DNA of 26,359 nucleotides from Phycisphaerales bacterium (lineage in GTDB: Bacteria > Planctomycetota > Phycisphaerae > Phycisphaerales > UBA1924), in the NCBI GenBank assembly GCA_041940385.1, contig JBGTSD010000035.1, positions 1 to 26,359 on the forward strand. Reading direction: 5' to 3'. The notes beneath the pieces were generated by a model, which searched no databases, had not been told where the DNA came from, and worked only from the letters and a program-made list of their open reading frames with translations. Every line of letters starts with the position of its first letter. Position 1 is the stretch's first letter. Below, piece by piece: positions 1,394 through 22,396 of the stretch. A program made the position numbers and the translations under genes.

Positions 1394-2455
1394 TCACTCG
1401 CACGGCTGGTTGAACCGCCCGAGCAGGATGTTGAGGTCGGCAAAGTCCACGCGCTGGTCGCCGTTGAAGTCGGCGCCGAGACCGGGGGCTTCGGTGCGGA
1501 ATTGATTGAGGGTGATGGAGAGGTCGTCGAAGTCGACGTCAGAGTCGCCATCGGCGTCGCCGTCGCAGAGCTGGAGGACGCCGGAGGCGGTGAGGTTGTC
1601 GAAGTAAACCGGGCTGCCTGCGCTAAGGAACGTGCCGTTCGCCTGAACAGAATCGAACGGCGCCCATGCGCCTCGCCACAGTTCGCCGACGAGGTAGGGC
1701 CCATTGCCATCCATGAGATCAAGGTAGAAGCGGTGGTATGCATCCGGACTCAGCTCGATCCGCAGGCGACACCAGGCGCCGAGGGGCGCCAAGGCCGGAT
1801 CATCCAGTTGCACACCGACAGGCGCCGACTCGAGGTAGCGGAGCAGATGAAATGAAGGGCAGGTCGCACAGGAGGGATGCGGCGCAAAGCCGACGATCAT
1901 CGGCGCGGCGACGCCCGCTGGCAGTCCAAGCATGTCGCAGTGGCCGCTCGGCGAGTTGAGATCGGCGTACGCGTCGCAAGGCCCACCGATCAACGCCCGC
2001 GCGACAAATCCCTGATTGACAGCGTTCGTCGCGGCCAGTTCCCATGTCGAGGCGGCGCTGGTCACGAATACTTCCGCCTCGATCCACGCCGATACTTCGA
2101 GTCCCGCCGCCAGCACGGCGCGTCGCGGTGGCGAATTGTGCGTCAACAGTTCGGCCCGCCAGCCGAACGAGTAAGCGCCGATCGGCGAGACGCTGTCGAG
2201 CTTCGCCTTGACCGACCCGTTGCCGCCGATCGCGTCCGTCGCGAACTCCGCGGCTCGCCCCGGCGCGGTCGTGCCGCGCCAGAGGGTGAGCCCGGTGATC
2301 CGCGGGTCGCTCCACAGCGGCGCGGTCGTCTGGCCGTTGATCGCGCCGGGCGATGCGGACTCGAGGGAGTCCGTCACGGTGACGAGCGTTCCGCCGGCGA
2401 ACGCGGCGTGAGCGCCGAAGGCCAGAATCGCGGCCTTCGGGAGCGATCGGCGCAT
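1394..2455 (-). CDS. Secreted hypothetical protein with C-terminal Cys-bracketed dockerin-like (EF-hand-like Ca-binding) module; paralog A
   Basis: ORF 1394..2476 begins at GTG; an internal ATG at 2455 is preceded by AAGGAGAGG and gives signal peptide MRRSLPKAAILAFGAHAAFA. C-terminus reads CDGDADGDSDVDFDDLNITLNQF...DFNGDQRVDFADLNILLGRFNQPCE, i.e. two DxDxDGxVDxxDL dockerin-type loops. Confidence 0.8.
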   Translation of the reverse strand: MRRSLPKAAILAFGAHAAFAGGTLVTVTDSLESASPGAINGQTTAPLWSDPRITGLTLWRGTTAPGRAAEFATDAIGGNGSVKAKLDSVSPIGAYSFGWRAELLTHNSPPRRAVLAAGLEVSAWIEAEVFVTSAASTWELAATNAVNQGFVARALIGGPCDAYADLNSPSGHCDMLGLPAGVAAPMIVGFAPHPSCATCPSFHLLRYLESAPVGVQLDDPALAPLGAWCRLRIELSPDAYHRFYLDLMDGNGPYLVGELWRGAWAPFDSVQANGTFLSAGSPVYFDNLTASGVLQLCDGDADGDSDVDFDDLSITLNQFRTEAPGLGADFNGDQRVDFADLNILLGRFNQPCE

Positions 2456-2466
2456 CGCGCCTCTCC

Positions 2467-3450
2467 TTATTCGCACGGCTGGTTGAACCGTCCGAGCATG
2501 ACGTTCAGGTCGGCGAAGTCGATGCGCTCATCGAGGTTGAGGTCGGCGCCGGGGCAGAGTCCGGGCGTGGTGTTGAACGCGCCGAGGAGTTGATTGAGGT
2601 CGGCGAAGTTGACGTTGCCGTCGCCGTCGAGGTCGCCGCAGCCGGGCCGGAGGTTGCGAACGGTGAGGTTCTCGAAGTGCACGGTGACGGCGAGTGATTC
2701 GAGGTAGGCCATGAAGCGCCAGGCGTCGGTCCCGGTGAGATTGGTCATGAGCGTGCCGCTGTGGATCAGGAACCGCCCCTGTCCGTCGAGGTAGTTGATG
2801 TAGACGCGCATGTCGCGGTCGAGGTCGTGCTCGATGCTGAGGCGGAACCACTCGTTGACGGGCGTGGGGACGACGTCGCCGACGCTGGCGCCCGCGGGCG
2901 CCGAGCCGACGTAGCGCGCCTCCACGTATCCCGCGTTGGTCGCCACGCGGAAGGTGTCGACGAACTGGCCGTTGCCGATGTCGAAGCCGCCCCAGCCGAC
3001 GCGCGCCAGCGGCGCCTCGCCGACGTCCCACGTCCAGCCCGAGAGCAGCGACTGGACGAAGACCTCGGTCTCGTAGCGCACCAGCCCGTCGCTCGCCGGC
3101 GTCATGACGTCCGGGAACTCGACGCGCGCGCCGATGAAGGGGATGTTGCCCGCCGAGACATTCGTCACCCGACCGCGCAGCGTCTGGGATGCGTTGCCGC
3201 CGATGGGCTGGAGCGTGTTGTTCGAGATCGCGGCCCGATCGGGGATCGAGGGGAGCGCGAGCCAGGTGTTGACCCAGTTGTCATCGATGATCGTTGTCTG
3301 GTTGTGCAGTGGGGCGGGGAGCGGCTCGAGGGTCTCGAAATCGTCGATGAAGCCGACGACGGTTCCGCCGCAGGTGATGACGCCGGTCTGCGCGCAGAGG
3401 GGCGCGGCGCTCGCGGCGAGGATGGCGAACGCAAGGGTGCAACGTTGCAT
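2467..3450 (-). CDS. Secreted hypothetical protein with C-terminal dockerin-like module; paralog B
   Basis: ATG at 3450 is preceded by GGAGAC. Signal peptide MQRCTLAFAILAASAAPLCAQ. C-terminus reads GCGDLDGDGNVNFADLNQLLGAFN...ADLNLDERIDFADLNVMLGRFNQPCE. The central region aligns with paralogs A and C. Confidence 0.8.
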   Translation of the reverse strand: MQRCTLAFAILAASAAPLCAQTGVITCGGTVVGFIDDFETLEPLPAPLHNQTTIIDDNWVNTWLALPSIPDRAAISNNTLQPIGGNASQTLRGRVTNVSAGNIPFIGARVEFPDVMTPASDGLVRYETEVFVQSLLSGWTWDVGEAPLARVGWGGFDIGNGQFVDTFRVATNAGYVEARYVGSAPAGASVGDVVPTPVNEWFRLSIEHDLDRDMRVYINYLDGQGRFLIHSGTLMTNLTGTDAWRFMAYLESLAVTVHFENLTVRNLRPGCGDLDGDGNVNFADLNQLLGAFNTTPGLCPGADLNLDERIDFADLNVMLGRFNQPCE

Positions 3451-3476
3451 AGGAATGTCTCCAGAATGAGGGGAAT

Positions 3477-4547
3477 TCACTCGCACGGCTGATTGAACCG
3501 TCCGAGCAGGATGTTGAGGTCGGTGAAGTCCACGCGGAGATCGCCGTTGAAGTCTCCGCCGAGGCCGGGCCCCTGCGTGGAGTACTGGCTAATCGTGATG
3601 TTCAGATCATTGAAATCGACGTCGCCATCGCCGTCGGCGTCGCCGTCGCAGATCGAGAGCAGGCCGGAGACGAGCACGTCGTCCATGTAGTACGGCGCAC
3701 CGGTCACGAGGAACGAGCCGTTGACGCCCATGGAGTCGACGATCGTCGCGGGCGTATAGCCCTGCAACTCGCGGAGCAGGAATTCGCCCTCGCCGTTGAG
3801 GTAGTCCGCGTAGATGCGGATCACGCCCGCGCCGTCGCGCTCGAAGATGAGCCGCACCCACGAGCCGAACGGCGTGGGCGCGTAGTCGCCGATCTCGAAG
3901 CCCTGCGGCGCCGCGGTTTGGAACGACAGCGGCATGAAGTCGGGAATGCAGATCGAGCAAGGCATGTACCCGAGCGCCTGGAGGATCGGCATGGGGTCGC
4001 CGGGGAGCAGGCCGACGTCGTCGCACTCGAACGGGCTGCTGCCGTAGGAATTCAGGACACAAGGCCCGCCGAGCATCGCCCGGTCCATGATGAAGTTCTG
4101 CGAGATGGATCCGGGCTCGAGCGTCCACAGCGCCGTGATCTCGTTGGTGAAGACCGTTGCCTCGGCGCGGATGACGGTGGTCGCGTCGGCCATGAACCGG
4201 GCGCGCCGGGCGGGCGCATTGTGCGTGTAGAATTCCGAGCGGAAGCCGAAGAAGAAATCGCCCGCGGGCGGCGCCGTGATCGACTCCGCCGACGCTTTCC
4301 ACGACGTGTTCCCGGCGACGGGGTCGGTTGTGAAGTACGCCGTGCGGCCCGCGGCCGTTGTGCCGCGCCAGGTCGTCAGGCCGGTGATGCGGGAATCGCT
4401 CCAGAGGGGAGTGGTCAACTGTCCGTTGACCGCGCCCGCCGATGCGGACTCCATCGACTCCTTAACGGAGACAAAGACGGGGCCGGCTTGGGACAGGTTG
4501 GTCCAGAGCGCGAGGACGAGGGACGCCGCGAGCAACACTCGCTGCAT
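3477..4547 (-). CDS. Secreted hypothetical protein with C-terminal dockerin-like module; paralog C
   Basis: ATG at 4547 is preceded by GGGAGG. Signal peptide MQRVLLAASLVLALWTNLSQA. The N-terminal region ESASAGAVNGQLTTPLWSDSRITGLTTWRGTTAAGR matches paralog A closely. C-terminus reads CDGDADGDGDVDFNDLNITISQY...DFNGDLRVDFTDLNILLGRFNQPCE. Confidence 0.8.
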   Translation of the reverse strand: MQRVLLAASLVLALWTNLSQAGPVFVSVKESMESASAGAVNGQLTTPLWSDSRITGLTTWRGTTAAGRTAYFTTDPVAGNTSWKASAESITAPPAGDFFFGFRSEFYTHNAPARRARFMADATTVIRAEATVFTNEITALWTLEPGSISQNFIMDRAMLGGPCVLNSYGSSPFECDDVGLLPGDPMPILQALGYMPCSICIPDFMPLSFQTAAPQGFEIGDYAPTPFGSWVRLIFERDGAGVIRIYADYLNGEGEFLLRELQGYTPATIVDSMGVNGSFLVTGAPYYMDDVLVSGLLSICDGDADGDGDVDFNDLNITISQYSTQGPGLGGDFNGDLRVDFTDLNILLGRFNQPCE

Positions 4548-4693
4548 GGGAGGCCTCCCGAAATGCCTCACCCTCCAGAGCGGGCAGGCCCCCGACGCAC
4601 AGGGGCCGATCCAATCAAAATGACGCCCGGATGAGCCGCAGTCAAGAATGATCGACCGATATTCGTCTTGACGACCGGCGTCGGCCCCGGACA

Positions 4694-5359
4694 ATGGCCG
4701 CCATGAAGACCGCTTTGTCCGTGATCGCGATGTTCGGCCTTGCCTTGGGCGCTTCGGGCGCAAGCTCGATCGATCCTGCGCATAAGTTCGCGTGGGGCGA
4801 GAACATCGGCTGGACGAACTGGCGCGACGCCGACGGCGGCGACGCCGGCGCGCGCGTGGAACGCACGTTTCTGTCAGGATTCGTCTGGGGTGAGAACGTC
4901 GGGTGGATCAACCTCGGCGCGGGCCCCGCGAATTGCGCTCAGTACGCGAACACCACCGGCGCGGACTTCGGCGTCAACGTTCTGCCGAACGGCGACCTCG
5001 CCGGCCTCGCGTGGGGCGAGAACATCGGCTGGATCAACTTTGACACGGCGTCATCGCTGAGCGCGTTCGGGCAGCAGGCGCGCTTCGACGCGTCCGCCGG
5101 CCGCTTCCGCGGCTACGCGTGGGGCGAGAACGTCGGCTGGATCAACCTCGACGACAGCGCGCACTACGTCGGCTCGAGCATCCCGTGCCCCGCGGACGTG
5201 GACGGCGACGGCTTCATGGGATTCGCCGATCTCAACATCATCCTCTCCGCGTTCAACCAGATCGGTCCGTGTCTCGAGGGCGATCTCAACGGCGACGGCC
5301 AGGTCGGCTTCTCCGACCTGAACCTCGTGGTGTCGTTCTTCAATTCGAATTGCCCGTAA
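4694..5359 (+). CDS. Secreted repeat protein: four WGEN[IV]GW[IT]N repeats plus a C-terminal Cys-bracketed dockerin-like module
   Basis: Signal peptide MKTALSVIAMFGLALGASGA. Repeats AWGENIGWTNW / VWGENVGWINL / AWGENIGWINF / AWGENVGWINL at a spacing of about 32-42 aa. C-terminus reads CPADVDGDGFMGFADLNIILSAFNQ...DLNGDGQVGFSDLNLVVSFFNSNCP. Transcribed divergently from paralog C. Confidence 0.8.
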   Translation: MAAMKTALSVIAMFGLALGASGASSIDPAHKFAWGENIGWTNWRDADGGDAGARVERTFLSGFVWGENVGWINLGAGPANCAQYANTTGADFGVNVLPNGDLAGLAWGENIGWINFDTASSLSAFGQQARFDASAGRFRGYAWGENVGWINLDDSAHYVGSSIPCPADVDGDGFMGFADLNIILSAFNQIGPCLEGDLNGDGQVGFSDLNLVVSFFNSNCP

Positions 5360-8029: not shown

Positions 8030-8103
8030 ACGCCCCGGAGGGGCGTGTCCCGGCGCGCCGGGATAGCCGGGGGTGCAGGCCGCAACGCGGCCGAAACCCC
8101 CGG
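8030..8103 (+). promoter_or_regulatory. Cluster of three adjacent GC-rich hairpins/palindromes in the leader of the FGE-domain gene
   Basis: ACGCCCC-gga-GGGGCGT at 8030-8046; perfect palindrome CCCGGCGCGCCGGG at 8049-8062; nested CCGGGGG...GGCCGC-aac-GCGGCC...CCCCCGG at 8067-8103. About 95 nt upstream of ATG 8199. Confidence 0.3.
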
Positions 8104-8198
8104 ACGCGAGACCTGAGGGAAATCCTCTTGCGTTTCCCGCGCCCCGTGCGAGACTGGTCGGAGCACAGGCCTCGCAGTCCAAGTCCGGGAACTCTGCC

Positions 8199-9236
8199 AT
8201 GCTGAACCTGCGTATCGCCGCGTCCGTCGTGTGTGCGCAGATCGCGTGCGCGCCCGCAATCGCCGCGCCGAAGGTCTCCACCGAGTTCGGCATCGACTTC
8301 GTCACCATCGGCCGTCCCGGCAACCGTGGCGCCTTTCCCGAGGAGCGCTTCTACAACAACCCGCACTATCAGAACCTCGGCAGCGTCAACTACCGGTACC
8401 GTCTGAGCCGGACCGAGATCACCTCGGAGCAATGGGTCGACTTCGCAAACGCGTATGAGCCGTACTGGGCGGCGGCGGGCGGGAGCCGCATCAACCCCGG
8501 TTTCACTGGCGGGTGGCTCAATCCGCAGACCCTCAATCCCAACCTCCCGGCGAATTACTCGATCGCCGCCGGCGCCGAGCTGCTCGCTGTGCAGGTGCAA
8601 TGGCGCGTCGCCGCGATCTTCTGCAACTGGCTGCACAACGGGAAGGTCAACGAGGCGTGGGCGTTCCAGTCGGGCGCGTACGACGTCAGCACCTTTGGCT
8701 CGGACCCCAACGGCGGTTACACCGATCAGGAGTCCCGCTCACCCGGGGCGCGCTTCTGGATCCCCAGTGTCGACGAATGGACGAAGGGCGCGCATTACGA
8801 CCCGAACCGCTACGGCGAGGGCATGGAGGGCTACTGGCTGCGCATGGGAAGCCAGAACGAGCCGCTGATTCCTGGCTTGCCGGAGAACGGGGGACAGACG
8901 AGCTCGGGCGATTTCCTGCCTGGATTCGATGAACAATTCATCCCGGTAGGCTCCTACGCGCACGTTCCGGGCCCCTGGGGCGTGCTCGACACGTCGGGCG
9001 GCGTGCAGGAATGGACCGAGACGATCCGCTCTGGTTTCGATCTGCGGTTCGCCCGCGGCTCAGGCACGAATAACACCCAGTACGCCAACTTCGATGTGAT
9101 CGACTGGTACTCGACGCTTGGCGGTCCCGATCACGCGCGTAACGGCATGCGGCTGGCATCGGCAGTTCCGTCCGCGCCGCTGCCCGCCATGCTTCTCGGA
9201 GCGATCGGCGCCGCGGGTGCGCGCCGGAGGTGTTGA
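8199..9236 (+). CDS. Secreted FGE-sulfatase (SUMF1/formylglycine-generating enzyme) family domain protein with a PEP-CTERM-like C-terminal sorting tail
   Basis: Signal peptide MLNLRIAASVVCAQIACAPAIAA. FGE-like motifs YRLSRTEITSEQWVDFANA, RFWIPSVDEWTKGAHYD, GVQEWTETI, RFARGSG. C-terminal VPSAPLPAMLLGAIGAAGARRRC follows the pattern Pro-rich, hydrophobic helix, Arg cluster. Confidence 0.75.
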   Translation: MLNLRIAASVVCAQIACAPAIAAPKVSTEFGIDFVTIGRPGNRGAFPEERFYNNPHYQNLGSVNYRYRLSRTEITSEQWVDFANAYEPYWAAAGGSRINPGFTGGWLNPQTLNPNLPANYSIAAGAELLAVQVQWRVAAIFCNWLHNGKVNEAWAFQSGAYDVSTFGSDPNGGYTDQESRSPGARFWIPSVDEWTKGAHYDPNRYGEGMEGYWLRMGSQNEPLIPGLPENGGQTSSGDFLPGFDEQFIPVGSYAHVPGPWGVLDTSGGVQEWTETIRSGFDLRFARGSGTNNTQYANFDVIDWYSTLGGPDHARNGMRLASAVPSAPLPAMLLGAIGAAGARRRC

Positions 9237-12444: not shown

Positions 12445-13374
12445 CTAGCCGGCGCGCCGGATGGCGTGGATCAGTTCGCCGACGTAGTCGCGCAGGCCAA
12501 GATCGCTGCGCGACTGCTCGACGCCCAGCGCCTCGCGCGTCGCCGCTTTGTCGAATATGTTCTTCGCCGGCGGTCCGGTGTCCGGCTCGACCATCGATGG
12601 ATCGAGCCCGAGCAGCGCCGCGGCGTGCTCGCCGAAGCGCGTGTACTTCGCGTAGCAGTCGGCGAGGTGAAACGCGCGCCCGGAGACATTCTCCAGCTCA
12701 GCGCGCTCGACCGCGCGGCAGACCGCCATCGCCACATCCTGCACGTGCACGAACTTTCCGCCGCCGGGGAAGTCGCGCCTGTTGACGCGTTCGCCGCGGA
12801 GCAGACGGCGCACCTGCTCTTCACCGTGGCTGCGTTCGAGGCGCACGGGCTCGACGCCGTAGACCGCGGCGGGACGGAGCGCGGCCGTGTGCATGCCGAG
12901 CCGGAACTTCGCATCCCAGAGGTGTGCTTCGACCGCGGCCTTTGCGGCGCCATAGAGCGAGCCCGGACGCAGCGGGTGATCTTCATCCACGAGGCCCCCC
13001 CAAGAGGGGCTGATGTCGTGGTGCGCGGCGACGCTGGAGAGGTAGATGAATCGGGAGACACCCGCCCGGTGGGCGGCGTGGAGGAGCTGAACGGCCCCAG
13101 CAACGTTGGAATGCAGGTGCCGGGTGAGGTCACCCGAACGGAGTGCGTCCCAGTCGAAGCTGTTGTGGACGACGGCGTCCGCCCCGGCCAGAAGGTCCGG
13201 CCAGGCCGAGGCATCCGCCTGGTCGGCCCGGACGTATCGGGAAATGACCGGGTCCAGATGGCCGGTGGCCGACGTCGGCCGCACCAGCCCAACGACCTCA
13301 TGCCCCCGGTCGCGCAGAACTCGCGCGGAAAACGTGCCGATGAAGCCCGAGGCGCCCGTTAACACAATCCGCAT
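12445..13374 (-). CDS. NAD(P)-dependent epimerase/dehydratase (extended SDR family)
   Basis: MRIVLTGASGFIG Rossmann motif and YGAAK catalytic YxxxK. Its stop codon directly abuts the flotillin stop, a convergent pair with 0-bp spacer. Confidence 0.85.
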   Translation of the reverse strand: MRIVLTGASGFIGTFSARVLRDRGHEVVGLVRPTSATGHLDPVISRYVRADQADASAWPDLLAGADAVVHNSFDWDALRSGDLTRHLHSNVAGAVQLLHAAHRAGVSRFIYLSSVAAHHDISPSWGGLVDEDHPLRPGSLYGAAKAAVEAHLWDAKFRLGMHTAALRPAAVYGVEPVRLERSHGEEQVRRLLRGERVNRRDFPGGGKFVHVQDVAMAVCRAVERAELENVSGRAFHLADCYAKYTRFGEHAAALLGLDPSMVEPDTGPPAKNIFDKAATREALGVEQSRSDLGLRDYVGELIHAIRRAG

Positions 13375-13438
13375 CCAAGCGCCCTCCGACCCGCGTGCAC
13401 TCGCAAATGGCGCGGCGAAGCCTGCCTCGAACGGCTCA

Positions 13439-13467
13439 TTGACACCCCACGAGGGCGTTCATAGTTT
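13439..13467 (+). promoter_or_regulatory. Candidate sigma70-type promoter for the kinase gene
   Basis: TTGACA (13439-13444), a 17-nt spacer, then TAGTTT (13462-13467). It lies 47 nt upstream of ATG 13514 in the 139-bp divergent intergenic region. Confidence 0.3.
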
Positions 13468-13513
13468 AGGCGATTCCGCGCGGCCTGCTTCGCCCTCGCG
13501 GGCCCCGAGCACG

Positions 13514-14896
13514 ATGAGCGGACCGACGAATCATTACGGCAGCGACGACTCGGACAAGCTCCGCATGCCGTCTGACGATCCGCGCCGCGCCGGCGCGGCG
13601 ACGGCCGGCGACACGCGCTCCGGGACCAAGTCGGGCACCAAGTCCGGCTCGAAGTCGCCTGCCGATCTGGACGCGATCCTGGCGCGCGTGGTCGTCGAGC
13701 ACGGCCTGGCCTCGATGGACGAGGTGCAGCAGTGCCTGCGCACCCGCAACGAGCAGTCGCGCGCCGGCGGCGATCCCGGCCAGTCCTCGCTGGCGCAGCT
13801 CCTGGTCGACAACGATCTGGTCACCAAGCGTCAGCTCGAGCGCCTCAAGAGCGCGATCGAGGCCGAGCGCTCCGGCCAGCACATCCCCGGCTACACCGTG
13901 CTCGGCAAGCTCGGCGCCGGCGCGATGGCGACGGTCTTCAAGGCGCGCCAGGTGTCGCTCGACCGGCTGGTCGCGATCAAGATCCTTCCGCGCAAGTTCA
14001 CCAGCGACCCGCAGTTCATCGAGCGCTTCTACGCCGAGGGGCGGGCCGCGGCGCAGCTCAATCACCCGCACATCGTGCAGGCGTACGACGTCGGCAAGGC
14101 CGGCGAGTACCACTACTTCGTGATGGAGTACGTGGAGGGCTCGACGGTCTACGACCAGATCGTCGCGAAGAAGCGGTATGCGGAGGCGGAGGCCGTCGAG
14201 ATCATCATCCAGGTCGCGCTCGCGCTCGAGCACGCGCACGACAAGGGCCTGATCCACCGCGACGTGAAGCCCAAGAACATCATGATCTCCAAGGAGAGCG
14301 TGGTGAAGCTGGCCGACATGGGCCTGGCCCGCGCCATCTCCGATCGAGAGGCCGCCGAGGCCGAGGCCGGCAAGGCGTTCGGCACGCCGTACTACATCAG
14401 CCCCGAGCAGATCCGCGGCGAGCGCGACGTCGCGGCGCCGGCCGACATCTATTCGCTCGGCTGCACGCTCTACCACATGGTCACCGGGCGCGTGCCCTTC
14501 GAGGGCAAGGACCCCTCCGAGGTGATGAAGAAGCACCTCAAGGCGGCGCCGATCCCGCCGGATCAGATCAATCCGAAGCTCTCCGCGGGTCTCTGCGAGG
14601 TCATCGAGATGATGATGGCCAAGCGCCGCGAGGACCGCTACCAGAACTGCCGCGACCTCATCACCGATCTCCGGGCGGTCCAGAAGGGCGAAAAGCCCGC
14701 GATCGCCCACAAGCCGATCACCGGCGCCGCGCCCGAGGCGCTCTCCCAGCTCCTCGTCGAGGAGCAGGCCCGTCCGGCGGAGATCGCCGTCGACCGCACG
14801 CGAACGCCCTCGCCCTTCAGCCACCTGATCGTGCAGATCATGCTGGCCCTGCTCATCCTGAGCGTCGCGGCGAACTTCGTGATGCTGTTCCGCTAG
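13514..14896 (+). CDS. Ser/Thr protein kinase with N-terminal GspE-N/MshEN-like tandem motif region and C-terminal tail-anchor TM helix
   Basis: Kinase subdomains are present: LGKLGAGAMATVFKA, AIKIL (Lys), HRDVKPKNIM, DMGLA (a DFG variant), GTPYYISPE. N-terminus has KSGTKSGTKSGSKS, then LARVVVEHGLASMDEVQQCL and LAQLLVDNDLVTKRQLERL repeats. C-terminus LIVQIMLALLILSVAANFVMLFR is hydrophobic. Confidence 0.85.
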   Translation: MSGPTNHYGSDDSDKLRMPSDDPRRAGAATAGDTRSGTKSGTKSGSKSPADLDAILARVVVEHGLASMDEVQQCLRTRNEQSRAGGDPGQSSLAQLLVDNDLVTKRQLERLKSAIEAERSGQHIPGYTVLGKLGAGAMATVFKARQVSLDRLVAIKILPRKFTSDPQFIERFYAEGRAAAQLNHPHIVQAYDVGKAGEYHYFVMEYVEGSTVYDQIVAKKRYAEAEAVEIIIQVALALEHAHDKGLIHRDVKPKNIMISKESVVKLADMGLARAISDREAAEAEAGKAFGTPYYISPEQIRGERDVAAPADIYSLGCTLYHMVTGRVPFEGKDPSEVMKKHLKAAPIPPDQINPKLSAGLCEVIEMMMAKRREDRYQNCRDLITDLRAVQKGEKPAIAHKPITGAAPEALSQLLVEEQARPAEIAVDRTRTPSPFSHLIVQIMLALLILSVAANFVMLFR

Positions 14897-16089: not shown

Positions 16090-16522
16090 GTTCGGTCTCG
16101 CCTTCCGAGGAACCGTCCGGAATTGACATGCGTATCTGAAAGCGTAACGATCCCCTGCCTTTCTGGTCGCAGCGATCCCCCACATACCCTGATCATGCAC
16201 TGATGGGCGGCTCTGGCCGCCGAGTGATTCCCGGGCGGGTCCACGCGAACCGACATCTCGAAGCCGATCCGCGGCGCCGACGCGACCTGGCGTGTGCGCT
16301 GCGCTCGACATTGATCGGCGTTCCGTCGTTCGCGGCCACGGAGCCGCACCGGCGCGGATTCTTCAGCGGCGCTCCACGATGGCCCATGCGTCGAGCCGCA
16401 CAATCCGCCCCCTGCGAAGCGCGAGCGATGGAGGTTCCCGGTTCCACCGGCGGCGCGATGCGCCCGACCGGACTCGCTCGGATACACCCATGTCAAAACG
16501 CAACTTCACTTTTGGAGGTCTC

Positions 16523-17626
16523 ATGACCCGCAACACCAGCAAGCGTGCATTCACGCTGATCGAGCTGCTCGTGGTCGTTTCGATCATCGGCCTGCTCATC
16601 GGCATCCTGCTGCCGGCGCTCGGCCGGGCGAAGAAGAACGCCCAGCAGATCAAGTGCGCCTCGCAGCTTCGCGAAGTCCACCGCGGCTTCACGACGTTCG
16701 CGCAGAGCAACCGCGACCGTTACCCGACCCCGTCCGCGCTCGACAAGCTCAACTACACCGAGACGGCCGGCGGCGCCCCCGGCATGGTCGATCAGAACAT
16801 CGCCCCCGCCGAGCGTCTCAAGAACCGCACCGGCGCGGTGCTCTCCTTCCTGATCTACCAGGGCTTCTTCCCGCCGGAGCTCGTGGTCACCCCCGCCGAG
16901 GCCGAAGGCCTGATCCACAAGGATCCGGACTTCGAGCAGGGCGAAGTCAGCACCGCGCAGGAGCCCGGCCGCGCGCTGTGGGACCCGGCGTTCGTCGGCA
17001 CCCCCTCGCCCAACGACTACCTGCCCCCGAACGTCTCTCAGGACGAGCAGAACCCGCCGGACATCGCGGTTCCCGGTCAGGGCGGCAACAACTCCTACGC
17101 CATGGTCCCGCTCTGGGGTGAGCGTCACCGCCTGTACTACGGCCTGACCTACTCCTCGAACGAGCCGCTCATCGGCAACCGTGGCCCGCGCTACACGACT
17201 CCGTCGGCCCCGTCCGGCGGCACCACGGTCGTCTACGACCTCCTCGGCGGTCAGGGCGCCTCCGCGCTCCAGGGCGTGAACTCCACGACCCTCCTCATCC
17301 ACGGCGGCAAGCGCACGTGGGAAGGCAACCTCGCCTACAACGACGGCCACGTCTCCTTCGAGGGCAACCCCACCCCGACCAACGTCCGCATGCTCTTCCT
17401 CCAGAGCGGCGGCACCGAGGCCCAGATCTCGGACAACATCTTCGTTGACGAGGACTTCGAGTACGACCAGGACACCGACGCGCCCTATCGCAGCAACGTC
17501 CTGCTGCGCATGTGGCCCGCGAACGAGTCCCGCGGCCTCGCGTTCTCCGACACGACGGTCCAGGAGATCGATCAGACCTACGCCACCTGGGACGCCAAGC
17601 CCGGTGACTGGGGCACGGGCTTCTGA
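16523..17626 (+). CDS. Prepilin-type N-terminal cleavage/methylation domain protein, DUF1559 (Planctomycete H-X9-DG pseudopilin-like) family
   Basis: MTRNTSKRAFTLIELLVVVSIIGLLIGILLPALGRAKKNAQQIKCASQLREV is a class-III signal peptide plus conserved DUF1559 N-terminal region. C-terminal HGGKRTWEGNLAYNDGHVSFEG resembles the H..DG motif. GGAGG sits 4 nt upstream of ATG 16523. Confidence 0.88.
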   Translation: MTRNTSKRAFTLIELLVVVSIIGLLIGILLPALGRAKKNAQQIKCASQLREVHRGFTTFAQSNRDRYPTPSALDKLNYTETAGGAPGMVDQNIAPAERLKNRTGAVLSFLIYQGFFPPELVVTPAEAEGLIHKDPDFEQGEVSTAQEPGRALWDPAFVGTPSPNDYLPPNVSQDEQNPPDIAVPGQGGNNSYAMVPLWGERHRLYYGLTYSSNEPLIGNRGPRYTTPSAPSGGTTVVYDLLGGQGASALQGVNSTTLLIHGGKRTWEGNLAYNDGHVSFEGNPTPTNVRMLFLQSGGTEAQISDNIFVDEDFEYDQDTDAPYRSNVLLRMWPANESRGLAFSDTTVQEIDQTYATWDAKPGDWGTGF

Positions 17627-17660
17627 TCCCGATTTTCCCGTTGCTTTGATCGCATGATCC

Positions 17661-17697
17661 ACGCCCGCCCCGCCTCGTGCGGGGCGGGCGTCTTTTT
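17661..17697 (+). terminator. Rho-independent terminator downstream of the DUF1559 gene
   Basis: ACGCCCGCCCCGC-ctcgt-GCGGGGCGGGCGT (13-bp perfect stem) followed by CTTTTTG. Confidence 0.75.
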
Positions 17698-17739
17698 GAT
17701 CCTCGCCTCCCCGAATCCACCCCGTAGAATCGCCCCCTC

Positions 17740-19443
17740 ATGGCCGCGCGCACCGTCTACATCGAGACCTTCGGCTGCCAGATGAACGAGCTGGACAGCG
17801 AGCTGGTCGTCGGCGCGCTCCGGGCTTTGGGCTACCGCTTCGTCGCCGAGCCCGACAGCGCCGACGTGGTGCTCTACAACACCTGCTCCGTCCGTGACCA
17901 CGCGGAGCACAAGGTCCGCTCCCGCCTCGGCGAGGTCCGCCAGCGCAAGGAGCGCGAGCCCCACGTCGTCGTCGGCGTCCTCGGCTGCATGGCCGAACGC
18001 GACGGCGAGGACCTCATCCGGCGCATGCCGGTGGTCGACGTGCTCTGCGGCCCGGGCGAGCTCGACAAGCTTCCGGCGCTCCTCGACAACGCCGTCCGCA
18101 CCCGGTCGTCCATGCTCGCCGACGAGGGCGACGCGTCGCTCGGCCAGCGTCCGCGCCTGCGCTCGGCGCGGCAGGTGGCGCTCCAGGGCGGATCGTCGCG
18201 ACGCTCGGCGACGCTCGCCGCGGCCCAGGACAATCTCGAGCTTCTCGACCTGTCCCGGAGCGTGTCGCCGACCGATCACGACGGCTCGGCGTACGTGCGG
18301 ATCACCCGCGGTTGCAACAAGTTCTGCACCTACTGCGTCGTGCCCCACACCCGCGGCGCCGAGGTGCACCGCCCGCCGGACCACATCGTCGAGGAGTGCC
18401 GGCGCCTCGCCGACGCCGGCGTGCTCGAGGTCACGCTGCTCGGCCAGACGGTCAATCACTACCGATTCGAGCACGGCGCCTCGGTGACGGTGGGGGGCGT
18501 GGTCCAGCCGCAGAAGGGCCGTTCGTACCTCGGCGGGCATCGGCGCGACCCCTTCGGGGGCGAGCGCGTGACGACCTTCGCCGACCTGCTTCGGCGCATT
18601 CACGACGAGGCGCCGGGGATCCAGCGGCTTCGCTTCGTCACCTCGTATCCGCGGGATTTCGGCGACGATGTCCTCGAGGTCATCCGCGATCACCCGCGCA
18701 TCTGCCGCTACCTGCACGTCCCGGCGCAGTCCGGCTCCGACCGGATGCTCAAGGCGATGAACCGCGGTTACACGATCGCCGAGTACGAGGAGTTCCTCGC
18801 GCGGGCGCGCCAGCATCTGCACGAGCCCGAGAAGGGCCGGCCGCTGATGGTCGCGGGCGACATGATCGTCGGGTTCTGCGGCGAGACCGAGGACGATCAC
18901 GAGGCGTCGATGCGACTGCTGGAGCGCACACGCTACAAGAACGCGTTCATCTTCAAGTACTCGCCGCGCCCCGGAACGACGGCGTTTGATCGGATGAAGG
19001 ACGACGTCCCCGACGAGGTGAAGCGCCGGCGCAACAACGAGATGCTCGCGCTCCAGGCGAAGATCTCGAACGAGGTGCTCGCCGAGCTGGTCGGGCGCAC
19101 CTGGCGCGTGCTCGTCGAGGGCGTCAGCGAACGGGCGCGGAAGCAGAGCGAAGCGCCATCCGCGCCGGGTTTGACGGGCCTGACGGTGTCGGCGAAGGCA
19201 CGTCCGAGGGCGGCCGAGCGCGAGGTGGTCCAGATGACCGGGCGCACCGACGGCGACGTCATCGTGCATTTCCCGGTGGACGCCGCGAGCGCGGCGGACT
19301 GGATCGGCCGCTTGGTGGATGTGCGGGTCGATCGGGCGCCTGGGCTGAGTTTGTTCGGGACGGCCTCGACGCGCGACGCCGATCGTGCGGGCCTCCGTCC
19401 GGAAACAGATGGCGTTTCCCCGGTCGGGCTTGCGCTTCCCTAA
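17740..19443 (+). CDS. miaB: tRNA-i6A37 methylthiotransferase MiaB (radical SAM), with unusual insertions and a C-terminal extension
   Basis: YIETFGCQMNELDSE (MTTase N-terminal Cys), LYNTCSVRDHAE, GCMAE; radical-SAM ITRGCNKFCTYCVVP; TRAM-like C-terminus. At 567 aa it is longer than typical MiaB (about 440-480 aa). The extra segments are Arg/Ser/Ala-rich. Confidence 0.88.
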   Translation: MAARTVYIETFGCQMNELDSELVVGALRALGYRFVAEPDSADVVLYNTCSVRDHAEHKVRSRLGEVRQRKEREPHVVVGVLGCMAERDGEDLIRRMPVVDVLCGPGELDKLPALLDNAVRTRSSMLADEGDASLGQRPRLRSARQVALQGGSSRRSATLAAAQDNLELLDLSRSVSPTDHDGSAYVRITRGCNKFCTYCVVPHTRGAEVHRPPDHIVEECRRLADAGVLEVTLLGQTVNHYRFEHGASVTVGGVVQPQKGRSYLGGHRRDPFGGERVTTFADLLRRIHDEAPGIQRLRFVTSYPRDFGDDVLEVIRDHPRICRYLHVPAQSGSDRMLKAMNRGYTIAEYEEFLARARQHLHEPEKGRPLMVAGDMIVGFCGETEDDHEASMRLLERTRYKNAFIFKYSPRPGTTAFDRMKDDVPDEVKRRRNNEMLALQAKISNEVLAELVGRTWRVLVEGVSERARKQSEAPSAPGLTGLTVSAKARPRAAEREVVQMTGRTDGDVIVHFPVDAASAADWIGRLVDVRVDRAPGLSLFGTASTRDADRAGLRPETDGVSPVGLALP

Positions 19444-19671
19444 CGCGGCAAACTGAATCCTTCATAATCCTCCAAAAAGGGGTGTTCCGATTCTTGCAAT
19501 CGGTCCTCGGTGGGCTACATTGTGTCCGAGCCCCCGCACAGGGCTTGTTGGAGTCGAGGCTCAGTCCTCAGACATGTCTGGAGATCGTCGCGGAGCCGGT
19601 GGGAGTCCGCGTCACGCTTGAGAACTGTCCCTTTGGGCCGCACACCCGGGGGACCGGAGGAGTCGATCAAA

Positions 19672-20355
19672 ATGAGAATGAGAAACGCGATGTCGTTGGC
19701 GGGCGGACTTGCCCTCGCCACAGTGGCCAGCGCAGGCATCGACCTGGGCACGGTCTTCTTCACGTACGACGACCCGAACGGCCCGCCGCGCGAGCTGATG
19801 TACACCGCCGGCAACGCCAACCAGCAGGGTCATATCTCCTACTTCAGCGCGACGCCGTTCGACCTGGTGGTCGACGCGAGCGAGCCGGGCTGGGGCGTGG
19901 TGACCTACGCGGCGACGATTTCGATGGACGTCACCGTCGGCCAGGCCACGCAGATGGGCAACGTGTTCTTCGCTCCGGTCTCGGGTGGCTTCAATGTTAC
20001 CGTCGGCGGCGACACCGTCCTCACGGGCGTGCTGAACAACGGCGCCTTCCTGACCTTCGGCACCACGGGCAATCTCAGCGCGAACACCGCGACCGCCTCG
20101 GTCACGATGTCCGTCAGCGGCGACCTGCTCGCGCAGTTCGGCGGCAACCAGATCCAGCCCGACTTCAACGTCTCCTGGTCGCTTTCCGACTACCTGCCCA
20201 GCTCTCCCAGCATCAATCAGTTCGGCTACCTGACCTCGTTCATGGCGAACACCGCGTTCGTCGGCAGTGCGAACGTCGTCCGCGTGCCGACGCCCGGCTC
20301 TGCGGCCCTGCTGGGCATCGCTGGTCTGATCAGCCTGCCCCGTCGCCGGTCCTGA
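19672..20355 (+). CDS. Secreted PEP-CTERM-like sorting-tail protein, paralog 1
   Basis: GGAGGAG sits 9 nt upstream of ATG 19672. Signal peptide MRMRNAMSLAGGLALATVASAG. Conserved core VFFTYDDPNGPPRELMYTAGNAN...DLVVDASEPGWGVVTY...LTFGTTGN...LAQFGGNQ. C-terminus reads VPTPGSAALLGIAGLISLPRRRS. Confidence 0.8.
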   Translation: MRMRNAMSLAGGLALATVASAGIDLGTVFFTYDDPNGPPRELMYTAGNANQQGHISYFSATPFDLVVDASEPGWGVVTYAATISMDVTVGQATQMGNVFFAPVSGGFNVTVGGDTVLTGVLNNGAFLTFGTTGNLSANTATASVTMSVSGDLLAQFGGNQIQPDFNVSWSLSDYLPSSPSINQFGYLTSFMANTAFVGSANVVRVPTPGSAALLGIAGLISLPRRRS

Positions 20356-20409
20356 TCGAAATCGATGATCGTGCCCGTGCTGCGGGCACATCAATGTGAA
20401 CACTTCACA

Positions 20410-20438
20410 CCCCTCGGCGAAGGCCGGGGGGTGTTTTC
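20410..20438 (+). terminator. Rho-independent terminator after PEP-CTERM paralog 1
   Basis: CCCCTCGGC-gaag-GCCGGGGGG (9-bp stem with one G.U pair) followed by TGTTTTCGTT. Confidence 0.6.
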
Positions 20439-20668
20439 GTTCACGCTTCGTTCCGGTTGGCGCACGCCGCGAAAGAATCGTCGGGAACGCGCCGATTCCA
20501 TTGCTTGATGCGGCGTCGATGCTATATTTGACGCCACGAGAGGCCGCACACCTCTCGGAATGAGTCGCATCGCGGAGCGCCCGGCGGCACACCGGAGCGT
20601 CGTCCGAGAACCACAGGGAATCGATCGGAGCGCGTTCGCGCGACCGACTGGAAGAGAGGAGTTCGGAC

Positions 20669-21355
20669 ATGAAGCGTTCTGTTCTTGCGCTGAGTCTGCT
20701 TGCGGGGGCTCTCGGCACGTCGGCCGCGAACGCGGCGATCTACTTCACGTTCGATGATCCGAGCACGCCGCTCGAGTTGACGTACGTCGCCGGGACCGGC
20801 GGCGGCAGCGGCTCGGTGACGTACTCGAGCGCGGCGCGCGTCGATCTCGTCGTCGACGGGACCGAGGACGGCTTCGGCATCACGACCTATTCCGCGCGTT
20901 TGACGATGGACCTGGCCGTGGCGCCGGTGTTCGCGCCGCCGATCCCGATCGCGGTCACCACCGGAACGTTCACGTTCGCGATCGATGACGGGTTCGGTGG
21001 TTTCACCGACATTCTGCATGGCGACGCCGGCGAGATCGGCGGCGCGATGTTCGCCATCGGCTTCTCCGGCTCGATCAGCTTCTCCAACGATGGAGACGAG
21101 GACCCCGTGCTGTTCAATTGGACGGCGATGAACGATCTGCTGGCGTTCCTCGGCGGCAATCAGCTCATCGGCGCGCAGAGTGCGTCATTCTCGCTCGCGG
21201 CGCTGACGCCGCCCGTGCTCGGCGTGAACGTCGAGGGCTACATCCCGTCGTTCACCGCGAACGCCGCGTTCGTCGGGCACGGCGAGATCCCGGCGCCCGG
21301 CCCCACGGCCCTGTTCGGGCTCGCCGGCCTGGTGATGGCCCGCCGACGCCGCTGA
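20669..21355 (+). CDS. Secreted PEP-CTERM-like sorting-tail protein, paralog 2 (most divergent)
   Basis: GAGAGGAG sits 7 nt upstream of the ATG. Signal peptide MKRSVLALSLLAGALGTSAANA. Core IYFTFDDPSTPLELTYVAG...VDLVVDGTEDGFGITTY. C-terminus reads IPAPGPTALFGLAGLVMARRRR. Confidence 0.8.
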   Translation: MKRSVLALSLLAGALGTSAANAAIYFTFDDPSTPLELTYVAGTGGGSGSVTYSSAARVDLVVDGTEDGFGITTYSARLTMDLAVAPVFAPPIPIAVTTGTFTFAIDDGFGGFTDILHGDAGEIGGAMFAIGFSGSISFSNDGDEDPVLFNWTAMNDLLAFLGGNQLIGAQSASFSLAALTPPVLGVNVEGYIPSFTANAAFVGHGEIPAPGPTALFGLAGLVMARRRR

Positions 21356-21392
21356 TCACTCCGCGATTTCCTCGAATTTAGTGCCGACTATC

Positions 21393-21441
21393 CCGCCCAC
21401 GGGGCCGCGAATCGACGCGGCGTGTGGGCGGTTTTTCTTTT
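21393..21441 (+). terminator. Compound rho-independent terminator after PEP-CTERM paralog 2
   Basis: Outer stem CCGCCCAC...GTGGGCGG encloses an inner hairpin GCCGCG-aatcga-CGCGGC, followed by TTTTTCTTTT. Confidence 0.65.
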
Positions 21442-21658
21442 CCGGCCCGATTCAGCATTAGGCCTTGGAGATCGTCGCCCGGGGTGGTACCTTTTGGGGG
21501 TACGCGGGGCCCGCACAGCCCCGTGTTGAACATCCTCAACGGAAACCGTCACCGACCGCGGCGCCATTGGGCGCGGTCGACTGATGGCGAACGTCGTGGG
21601 TGCTCTTGGTTCTGAGCACAGGGTAAGCACAGGGAGAGAATCGAAAGGAGTCCGGATC

Positions 21659-22330
21659 ATGAAATGGGCAGCGTCTCTCATCATGGCGCTCTCGAGTTCG
21701 GCGGCCGCGGTCGCGGGGCTGTCGGGGACGGTGTTCTTCACGTATGACGACCCGGAGGGCACCCCGCGCGAGTTCATGTACACCGCGGGCAATGCGAACA
21801 ACGACGGGACGATCACGTTCAACACCTCGTCGCAGCTCGACCTGGTGGTGGACGCGCAGGAGCCGGGCTTCGGCGTCGTCACCTACGTTGTCACGCTCTC
21901 GCTCGACATGACGGTCGGTCAGGCGACGCTGGTCAGCCCGGGCGTGTGGCAGGCGCCGGTGGACGGGTCGTTCGCGTTCAACGACGGCGTGGACGACATC
22001 CTGACGGGCACCGTCATGGACGGCGCGTTCCTGACCTTCGGCACGACCGGCAACGTCAACGCGAGCAGCTCGACGCTGTCGCTGATGATGACGGCGAGCG
22101 GCCAGCTCCTCGCGCAGTTCGGCGGCGCGCAGCTCTCCGAGGCGTTCGACGCTTCGTGGTCTCTCGCGGACTTCCTGCCGGGCGCCCCGAGCGTCAACAG
22201 CAGCGGCTATCTGCAGTCGTTCGTGGCGAACTCGGCGTTCGTGGGCAGCGCGTTCATCGTGCCCGCCCCCGGCGGCGCCGCGCTCCTCGGCCTGGCGGGC
22301 CTGGTGGCCCTCCCGCGTCGTCGGTCCTGA
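21659..22330 (+). CDS. Secreted PEP-CTERM-like sorting-tail protein, paralog 3
   Basis: AAGGAG sits 8 nt upstream of ATG 21659. Signal peptide MKWAASLIMALSSSAAAVAG. Core VFFTYDDPEGTPREFMYTAGNAN...DLVVDAQEPGFGVVTY...LTFGTTGN...LAQFGGAQ. C-terminus reads VPAPGGAALLGLAGLVALPRRRS. Confidence 0.8.
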   Translation: MKWAASLIMALSSSAAAVAGLSGTVFFTYDDPEGTPREFMYTAGNANNDGTITFNTSSQLDLVVDAQEPGFGVVTYVVTLSLDMTVGQATLVSPGVWQAPVDGSFAFNDGVDDILTGTVMDGAFLTFGTTGNVNASSSTLSLMMTASGQLLAQFGGAQLSEAFDASWSLADFLPGAPSVNSSGYLQSFVANSAFVGSAFIVPAPGGAALLGLAGLVALPRRRS

Positions 22331-22357
22331 GTTCTGGCGAACAATTTCAAGCCATAC

Positions 22358-22396
22358 ACAACGCCCCCGGCCAGCGGCCGGGGGCGTTGTCGTTTG
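22358..22396. terminator. Bidirectional intrinsic terminator between the convergent PEP-CTERM paralog 3 and dacB
   Basis: Perfect 15-bp stem ACAACGCCCCCGGCC-agc-GGCCGGGGGCGTTGT with T-containing runs on both sides (CGTTTGC on +, TTGAAATTGTT on -). Confidence 0.6.

Follow-up and report, generated by a model that had tools for sequence, protein, structure and literature searches.

Gene anatomy and expression signals of the array

The stretch of DNA analyzed here (the window; 26,359 nucleotides) carries three paralogs, g1, g2 and g3, on its plus strand within positions 19672-22330. A preliminary description of the locus had announced three same-strand genes of about 225 aa, and these were indeed present, with lengths of 227, 228 and 223 aa. 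The first gene, g1 (paralog type A, 19672-20355), encodes a signal peptide (approximately residues 1-21), a predicted beta-barrel core and a tail, VPTPGSAALLGIAGLISLPRRRS, at 20284-20352. It is followed by g2 (type B, 20669-21355; tail IPAPGPTALFGLAGLVMARRRR at 21287-21352) and by g3 (type A', 21659-22330; tail VPAPGGAALLGLAGLVALPRRRS at 22259-22327). In their coding frames, the three genes have GC3 values of 0.85-0.88. Pairwise identity is 60% between g1 and g3 versus 37% between g1 and g2, in agreement with the earlier view that the first and third paralogs are close and the second is diverged. In related assemblies the array of three is conserved between the same neighbors, a MiaB-like gene and PBP4. 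Since the array and its flanking genes recur, the array is no chance feature. The conserved neighbors gave no hint of a partner enzyme in the related loci that we compared.

Every gene is preceded by promoter-like boxes on the plus strand: TTGCAA (19494-19499) and TACATT (19516-19521), separated by a 16-nt spacer, for g1 (19494-19521); TTGCTT (20501-20506) and TATATT (20523-20528), also with a 16-nt spacer, for g2 (20501-20528); and TTGGAG (21465-21470) and TACCTT (21488-21493), with a 17-nt spacer, for g3 (21465-21493). The g1 blocks are kept in orthologous leaders (GCTTGC...ACTACATT) with a variable spacer, and the g1 boxes fell below the threshold of a strict sigma-70 scan. Proteobacterial PEP-CTERM genes have a sigma-54 promoter upstream. 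Control by sigma-54 was rejected for the present array, as the leaders of g1, g2 and g3 contain no such site and counts across the window are at chance level. Ribosome-binding sites could be read from the sequence as GGAGGAG (19656-19662), 9 nt before the ATG of g1, GAGAGGAG (20654-20661), 7 nt before that of g2, and AAGGAG (21645-21650), 8 nt before that of g3.

Downstream of the coding regions, again on the plus strand, we found an intrinsic terminator for g1 (20407-20444), in which a 12-bp GC-rich stem is followed by UUUUCGUU (dG -33.5 kcal/mol; z-score against shuffles -6.9), and one for g2 (21393-21441), with a stem at 21393-21431 followed by UUUUUCUUUU (-31.1 kcal/mol; z-score -4.4 against shuffles). 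The terminator hairpin of g3 (22353-22396) has a 17-bp GC-rich stem (-35.2 kcal/mol; z-score -6.3 against shuffles). The tracts after the g1 and g2 hairpins are U-rich and that of g3, GUCGUUUGC, is weaker. A strict terminator scan recovered the g1 terminator only. The transcripts of g1, g2 and g3 are predicted to end after positions 20434, 21431 and 22390, respectively.

The gaps 5' of g1, g2 and g3 measure 228, 313 and 303 nt and contain the upstream terminator (where one exists) and the promoter-like boxes in addition to a 5' UTR predicted at ~135-160 nt. The strong ribosome-binding site and terminator that had been assigned to each gene were thus recovered, but the leader of about 300 bp was not, as these gaps are not all leader. 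The proposal of independent transcription units is in accordance with the promoter-like boxes and the terminator hairpin found for each gene, and these sequence signals support the prediction that g1, g2 and g3 are separately transcribed. According to Haft et al. (2006; PMC1569441), most PEP-CTERM genes stand alone in operons of one gene, with large intergenic regions in front of them, and the three genes share this trait with their own promoter-like boxes, terminators and upstream gaps. Because the trait is already described for PEP-CTERM genes, the monocistronic layout is typical rather than special.

CCGCACA stem-loops in the leaders

Each leader contains a stem-loop in which the loop, CCGCACA, is invariant whereas the stem covaries, and this element was seen only upstream of the present beta-barrel family. 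All copies lie on the plus strand. The leader of g1 has two: a distal hairpin (19527-19547), located where the mRNA is predicted to begin, which matched the covariance model with 29.0 bits (E = 4e-4) and forms in the minimum-energy structure of the UTR, and a proximal hairpin (19630-19652; 24.6 bits, E = 0.006), which ends 3 nt before the ribosome-binding site. The best match to the covariance model was the g2 hairpin (20537-20557; CGAGAGG[CCGCACA]CCUCUCG; 30.2 bits, E = 1.8e-4). Its arms resemble the ribosome-binding site of g2 and the complement of that site, and in the minimum-energy fold of g2 the 3' arm pairs alternatively with the ribosome-binding site. The g3 hairpin (21502-21526) combines a 9-bp stem with the same loop, scored 28.5 bits (E = 5e-4) and is seen in the minimum-energy fold. 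Like the distal g1 hairpin, those of g2 and g3 fall at the 5' ends predicted for their mRNAs, with putative start sites at about 19527-19531 (g1), 20535-20537 (g2) and 21500-21502 (g3). These hairpins are absent from the preliminary description.

A search of Rfam returned no family matching the leaders of g1, g2 or g3. Extended similarity was absent from the leader-to-leader alignment of the three genes, and whole-UTR folds were no more stable than shuffles. Conservation is confined to the local hairpins. The hairpin is previously undescribed, and we consider it a candidate for a new cis-regulatory RNA element.

The core domain and its C-terminal tail

By inspection, g1, g2 and g3 start with signal-peptide-like N-termini, composed of a basic region, a hydrophobic region and ASA-G, ANA-A or AVA-G, and with 223-228 aa they fit their description as small secreted proteins. 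The core of ~175 aa is acidic (pI ~4), has no Lys and no Cys, and contains all of the core motifs listed for the three paralogs. Searches of Pfam and NCBIfam gave nothing for the core beyond the tail matches, and the core profile retrieved spurious importin matches alone from PDB sequences (E ~0.01). The earlier placement of the core outside any named family was therefore upheld. In a search of 1.84 billion representatives, the core profile found 95 clusters at 50% identity. A match of the profile to P0082 (6660 aa), a cadherin-repeat protein, was rejected as spurious. Nearly all family members consist of a single domain, measure 210-260 aa and share one architecture. The five genome matches were to MAGs, of which four bear the name Phycisphaerales or Phycisphaeraceae, and the assignment to the Planctomycetota was borne out by these Phycisphaerales relatives. 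We conclude that g1, g2 and g3 belong to an unnamed Phycisphaerales protein family. An AlphaFold2 model of g3 (pLDDT 91.2, pTM 0.82) is an all-beta barrel, and the core can be predicted with confidence as an eight-stranded beta-barrel of the closed, up-and-down kind, which is a generic fold.

The tail occupies the last 22-23 residues, in line with the PEP-CTERM domain of about 24 residues at the very C-terminus, and runs from [IV]P[TA]PG through a hydrophobic helix to RRR. As had been claimed, the three tails start with VPTPG, IPAPG and VPAPG and end in RRR[RS]. The helix comprises ~14 residues and precedes the Arg cluster, as in GAALLGLAGLVALP followed by RRRS, a layout kept in the 95 tails that were matched by pattern among the members examined. 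The Glu in the Pro-Glu-Pro motif of PEP-CTERM signals is described as near-invariant. Neither g1, g2 and g3, with PTP, PAP and PAP, nor any of the 95 family tails contains this motif (PTP in 40, PAP in 33, PSP in 17, PGP in 3, PLP in 2 and PEP in 0 of 95). Gly directly follows the motif in 78/95 tails.

Full-length g1, g2 and g3 did not match TIGR02595 or PF07589. When the tails were used in isolation, g2 scored 17.3 bits against TIGR02595 (curated cut-off 16 bits), g3 scored 13.8 bits and g1 gave no match. The isolated tails of P0009 and P0010 reached 17.5 and 16.5 bits, and P0010 is named a PEP-CTERM sorting domain-containing protein by NCBI. Roughly, the cut-off was reached by ~42/95 isolated family tails (E <= 0.015, roughly 16 bits), and PF07589 matched 4 of 99 family members. 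Many full-length PEP-CTERM families likewise align with the tails at their C-termini. The PEP-CTERM match suggested initially thus stands for the layout, P[TAS]PG taking the position of PEP, and is borderline for HMM membership, as the isolated g2 tail alone passes among the three. We regard the tails of g1, g2 and g3 as a lineage-specific motif variant of the known PEP-CTERM class.

Models of other sorting signals matched the isolated tails as well: MYXO-CTERM 64/95 and GC_trans_RRR 54/95, with occasional matches to GlyGly-CTERM, PGAP-CTERM and PGF-CTERM. Since MYXO-CTERM models match the helix and Arg part as often as PEP-CTERM models do, this part is generic. The isolated g2 tail scored 21.9 bits against MYXO-CTERM (cut-off 20) over model positions 14-33 of 34 alone. 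Neither a whole-model score nor the Cys motif of MYXO-CTERM (TIGR03901 / TIGR03382) was found, and tails and cores lack Cys altogether. The Gly-Gly motif of GlyGly-CTERM (rhombosortase) was absent from the tails, of which only 7/95 matched the related MprA_tail model, a GlyGly-CTERM form, at E <= 0.015.

The tail behaves as a module that ends unrelated proteins. Four proteins encoded in the 26-kb window bear the tail, namely g1, g2, g3 and an FGE-sulfatase protein at 8073-9236, and locus L011 has two more tails on unrelated ORFs. In two family members, P0091 and P0100, the tail is swapped for an Asp-rich C-terminus, which appears dockerin-like by eye and had no Pfam match.

No exosortase was found in the window, nor in related loci (~194 kb) or metagenome loci (184 kb). 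The tblastn queries, which gave no match in any of the related loci, were XrtA from plasmid pDV of Desulfovibrio and three exosortases from plasmids of Planctomycetota. Exosortases are encoded in other Planctomycetota. A large-database search returned Isosphaeraceae-like enzymes only among its best 120 matches and is for this reason uninformative on the Phycisphaerales. Literature searches on Phycisphaerae with PEP-CTERM or exosortase yielded nothing useful. Because HMM membership is borderline and neither the window nor the related loci encode an exosortase, we go no further than to infer from the sequences that g1, g2 and g3 are putative exosortase substrates.

Possible function and relation to known systems

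We favor, with a probability of about 0.62, a reading in which g1, g2 and g3, paralogs of an unnamed Phycisphaerales family, are each transcribed on their own and encode an exported barrel, with a tail read by an exosortase-family enzyme and with shared control by the hairpins. After Sec export, the barrel would stay at the inner membrane, held by the tail helix, and the Arg cluster would lie on the cytoplasmic side. The PxPG motif would then be recognized at the outer face by an exosortase-family enzyme, which would cleave the protein, and the barrel might be released or transferred to the cell envelope or the extracellular matrix. The paralogs g1, g2 and g3 could supply variant subunits. The hairpins may provide shared post-transcriptional control, through mRNA stabilization or binding of a factor. 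More tentatively, and with considerable doubt on our part, the tails might constitute a distinct Phycisphaerales [IV]P[TAS]PG-CTERM signal, recognized by a dedicated exosortase subtype or some other enzyme, and the barrel family might form a regulon in which CCGCACA acts as an RNA operator bound by a putative RNA-binding regulator. The operator of such a regulon would be the hairpin at the 5' end of the mRNA and beside the ribosome-binding site.

A simpler explanation, which we consider unlikely, is that the tail serves only as a C-terminal membrane anchor, so that the barrel, never processed, would remain attached to the cytoplasmic membrane on its outer face. A generic hydrophobic-plus-Arg segment to which several unrelated sorting models match equally would be compatible with this, as would the failure to find a processing enzyme in the window and related loci. 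However, among proteins of only ~30% identity no part of the tail is better conserved than [IV]-P-x-P-G, and this motif recurs on unrelated proteins, which favors recognition by a partner over mere anchoring. The replacement of the tail by a different C-terminal module in two members also argues against a simple anchor. Quite unlikely, in our view, is a sorting signal for a non-exosortase, be it a rhombosortase-like enzyme, a CPBP-type intramembrane protease or an undescribed enzyme. The motif never contains Glu and the tails match MYXO-CTERM, GC_trans_RRR and further models, as such a signal might, but these matches span the helix and Arg part only, the tails have neither Cys nor Gly-Gly, and the spacing and position of Pro-x-Pro fit PEP-CTERM, whose cut-off 42/95 tails reach. 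Very improbable is a small outer-membrane barrel of the OmpA, OmpW, NspA or PagL type inserted by BAM, as the fold match is generic and g1, g2 and g3 end in a helix and RRR[RS] and not in the C-terminal beta-signal with terminal aromatic residue of BAM substrates.

The family offers a compact and confidently modeled cargo domain. PEP-CTERM/exosortase sorting is widespread in environmental bacteria and its biochemistry is poorly understood. A clean motif variant, without Glu and with a conserved Gly, could help to define recognition by exosortase subtypes. RNA-level control is very poorly understood in Planctomycetota, and the short hairpin, with its strong covariation and strict family association, provides a handle on the co-regulation of surface proteins in this group.

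The closest known system is PEP-CTERM (TIGR02595 / PF07589; PMC1569441). Common features are the signal peptide, a core without recognized domain, Pro-x-Pro, the ~14-residue helix and the Arg cluster, as well as the presence of several copies in a genome, operons of a single gene preceded by long intergenic regions and the occurrence in Planctomycetota. In contrast to PEP-CTERM, the middle position of the motif never holds Glu but Thr, Ala or Ser, with Pro and a conserved Gly after it ([IV]P[TAS]PG). Furthermore, full-length g1, g2 and g3 stay below both HMMs, have no sigma-54 site upstream and no linked exosortase. Several NCBIfam PEP-CTERM families, namely NF033554 (PepA flocculation protein), NF041927 (XDP1), NF038125 (THxN), NF041538 (EDSAP-1) and NF038129, resemble the present proteins in size (~200 aa), layout and weak C-terminal alignments. 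Yet, these matches reach ~11-25 bits versus cut-offs of 65-125, those of the isolated tails cover the tail only, and the cores are unrelated by sequence. NCBIfam calls PepA "flocculation-associated", which suggests by analogy that small PEP-CTERM proteins may act in the extracellular matrix.

The barrel resembles soluble eight-stranded barrels (DUF3224-like 2q03, UPF0311, allene oxide cyclase, dirigent proteins, Diels-Alderases, avidins) and those of the outer membrane (PagL, NspA, OmpA, OmpW). As sequence identity is 3-10% and no common motif or active-site residue was identified, this likeness is at the level of the fold only. Precedents for variant motifs before the same helix-plus-Arg module are PGF-CTERM with archaeosortase A and VPLPA-, VPDSG-, VPEID- and IPTL-CTERM, which are read by lineage-specific exosortase/archaeosortase subtypes. 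The Pro-Gly of g1, g2 and g3 recalls PGF, although the motif differs from those of PGF-CTERM and the other exosortase-family signals, and 2-3/95 tails reach those models. What is new, in conclusion, is an unnamed protein family that belongs to the known PEP-CTERM class and carries a lineage-specific variant of its motif, together with a candidate regulatory RNA hairpin. These findings extend the class and do not overturn its current understanding.

Organization and transcription of the gene array

The three paralogs g1 (19672-20355, 227 aa), g2 (20669-21355, 228 aa) and g3 (21659-22330, 223 aa) lie in tandem on the + strand, and the GC3 of their reading frames (0.85-0.88) is similar to that of the remaining window genes (window GC 66-72%). 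The preliminary description had regarded the first and third paralogs as close and the second as diverged, which is borne out by identities of 60% for g1 and g3, 37% for g1 and g2 and ~42% for g2 and g3. Tree reconstruction resolved four orthogroups. The paralog types are ordered A-B-A' in the window, A-B-B' in relatives and A-A' on one short contig, and tandem pairs or triplets occur again in distant members (e.g. loci L023, L027, L028 and L030). We therefore conclude that gene birth and death shape the evolution of the arrays. In several related assemblies the three-gene array lies between MiaB-like and PBP4 genes; throughout the wider family no neighbor gene is conserved. Just 5' of the MiaB-like gene, 16292-17626 (+) encodes a protein with a prepilin-type N-terminal methylation motif (PF07963), which related contigs keep at the same position.

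Each gene had been described as an apparently independent, monocistronic unit with a strong RBS, and both points were supported. The RBS reads GGAGGAG (g1), GAGAGGAG (g2) and AAGGAG (g3), with the ATG 7-9 nt downstream. A GC-rich, very stable hairpin follows each gene (dG -33.5, -31.1 and -35.2 kcal/mol; z-scores -6.9, -4.4 and -6.3 for g1, g2 and g3, respectively), with a U-rich tract after the g1 and g2 hairpins and a weaker one after that of g3. Of the three terminators, a strict consensus scan reported that of g1 alone, and it reported no promoter. Alignment of orthologous leaders from related assemblies revealed two conserved blocks, GCTTGC and ACTACATT, while the 16-17 nt between them vary, as would be expected for -35 and -10 boxes. 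The corresponding promoter-like boxes are TTGCAA (19494-19499) and TACATT (19516-19521) for g1, TTGCTT (20501-20506) and TATATT (20523-20528) for g2, both with a 16-nt spacer, and TTGGAG (21465-21470) and TACCTT (21488-21493) for g3, with a 17-nt spacer. No sigma-54 site was found in the leaders. Because these boxes lie inside the gaps upstream of g1, g2 and g3 (228, 313 and 303 nt), the gaps are not leaders of about 300 nt, as had been proposed; they hold the predicted promoter, a 5' UTR of only ~135-160 nt and, where a family gene precedes, its terminator.

Protein core and putative sorting tail

All core and tail motifs quoted in the preliminary description were found in the g1-g3 proteins, which consist of a signal-peptide-like N-terminus, a core of ~175 residues and the tail. 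The core contains no Lys or Cys and at most two Arg, has a pI near 4 and is rich in Ser, Thr, Gly, Ala and Asn (together ~47%). Searches of Pfam, NCBIfam and PDB sequences gave no match to it, in line with the earlier failure to name it. AlphaFold2, using a 99-sequence alignment, predicted a closed all-beta barrel followed by a C-terminal helix (pLDDT 91.2, pTM 0.82). A word-indexed search returned just 10 close relatives. An exhaustive search with a profile restricted to the core yielded 95 clusters at 50% identity (E <= 1e-10 for 81 of them), nearly all with 210-260 aa and the same layout. Named genome matches are Phycisphaerales or Phycisphaeraceae MAGs. We judged one match spurious, the giant eukaryotic-type cadherin-repeat protein P0082 (6660 aa; 19 matching stretches, E 1e-13), because a 'VVDA.D.G'-like repeat motif causes it. 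In P0091 and P0100, family members with the same barrel core, an Asp-rich repeated C-terminus (e.g. GDLDANGHVNVIDFGLFAADFG) replaces the sorting tail; these C-termini have no Pfam match, though they look dockerin-like by eye.

The family tail reads [IV]-P-[TAS]-P-G-[AS]-x-A-L, followed by a hydrophobic stretch and a final RRRR. In the family members examined, the pattern matched 95 tails, of which 40 have PTP, 33 PAP, 17 PSP, 3 PGP and 2 PLP, and none has PEP. The proposed PEP-CTERM assignment was recovered in part. Full-length g1, g2 and g3 matched neither TIGR02595 nor PF07589. As isolated tails, g2 scored 17.3 bits against TIGR02595 (cut-off 16 bits) and g3 13.8, with no match for g1; the relatives P0009 and P0010 reached 17.5 and 16.5 bits, and ~42 of the 95 family tails, likewise isolated, attained roughly the cut-off level. 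P0010 is already annotated by NCBI as a PEP-CTERM sorting domain-containing protein.

The same tail class also occurs on proteins with unrelated cores. An FGE-sulfatase (SUMF1-like) domain protein of the window (8073-9236, +, 387 aa) ends in VPSAPLPAMLLGAIGAAGARRRC, and two ORFs of L011, a locus from a Phycisphaeraceae MAG (12891-13862 and 17635-18645, both on the - strand), end in LPTPAGAAALGLALVSLSRRRRA and VPTPGAASLLALAGVVSIRRRR (LPTPAG... and VPTPGA...). Since the tail is carried by unrelated proteins and is swapped for an Asp-rich end in two family members, it is thus a modular signal. The Glu-less form is lineage-wide and not peculiar to the g1-g3 family.

Exosortase queries from one Desulfovibrio and three Planctomycetota plasmids gave no match in 194 kb of related loci, nor in the 184 kb of metagenome loci that surround members of the family. 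The remaining window genes are housekeeping genes, with a Na+/H+ exchanger as the only multi-pass membrane protein. Several long high-GC3 ORFs at 1394-4763 (-) and 4694-5359 (+) have no Pfam match. A large-database search returned solely Isosphaeraceae-type enzymes among the matches listed; exosortases are hence present in the phylum, which has no bearing on the source genome.

A leader hairpin with a CCGCACA loop

Every window leader contains a feature absent from the preliminary description, a stem-loop with the 7-nt loop CCGCACA that begins 5-12 nt 3' of the -10 box (+ strand; g1, 19527-19547; g2, 20537-20557; g3, 21502-21526). The g1 leader has a second, proximal hairpin (19630-19652, +) ending 3 nt upstream of the RBS. 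The CCGCACA hairpin is also found in leaders of orthologs and of distant members with merely 30-45% protein identity (L001, L003, L006, L008, L010, L011, L013 and L021-L024), either ~105-135 nt 5' of the start or adjoining the RBS. No such hairpin lies upstream of the FGE-sulfatase gene (8073-9236).

In non-redundant loci, 22 CCGCACA copies lie within 300 nt upstream of family genes, and 15 of these are enclosed by an uninterrupted stem of 5 bp or more, compared to none of 48 occurrences elsewhere on both strands. Among 19 unique instances, selected solely for containing CCGCACA, 88% of cells are paired versus 47.7% in shuffles, and all seven stem pairs show both-sided changes. None of 500 shuffles attained the covariation score of 0.94 (0.26 in shuffles), and in slid registers pairing falls to 34-51%. 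A covariance model run over both strands of 296.5 kb gave 22 matches at E < 0.01, 21 of them in sense orientation in family-gene leaders; the exception is antisense within a PBP4 coding region. No Rfam family matches the leaders or the hairpin, and the stability of whole-UTR folds is not unusual. That the loop is invariant while the arms covary freely argues that the element is recognized in folded, single-stranded form as RNA, and not as a palindromic DNA operator.

B-type hairpins (window 20537-20557; L001 2949-2965; L008 6095-6111; L021 2242-2258; L022 760-776) have the arms GGAGG/CCUCC or GAGAGG/CCUCUC, resembling an RBS and its complement. In the minimum-energy fold the g2 RBS pairs with the 3' hairpin arm, hinting at a possible translational switch. 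A ACAGGGAA or CACAGGG box recurs between distal hairpin and RBS (window 20617-20625 and 21619-21637; in L001, L003, L008 and L022 just 5' of the proximal hairpin) and is similar to the loop and 3' arm (CGCACAGGG) of A-type hairpins.

Relation to PEP-CTERM proteins

Our best reading is that g1-g3 belong to a new family, so far without a name, whose members are secreted beta-barrel proteins with a PEP-CTERM-class tail of lineage-specific motif, and that the genes are expressed from independent units that have a 5' hairpin element in common. The proteins would be exported by Sec and transiently anchored by the tail, which an exosortase-family enzyme would cleave, and the mature protein may have a surface or extracellular-matrix role. 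The short CCGCACA hairpin, the most original element, might stabilize the mRNA or serve an RNA-binding factor as its operator.

Matches to MYXO-CTERM models are equally frequent among the tails, yet confined to the helix and Arg part, and the family tails differ from MYXO-CTERM in having no Cys. Single-gene operons with large upstream intergenic regions are usual for PEP-CTERM genes (Haft et al., 2006; PMC1569441), so the g1-g3 layout is typical for the class. About half of the tails (~42/95) already fit the existing model. The proteins form a new member family of this known class, and the motif variant, in which Glu never occurs and Gly is conserved, is a modest extension of it.
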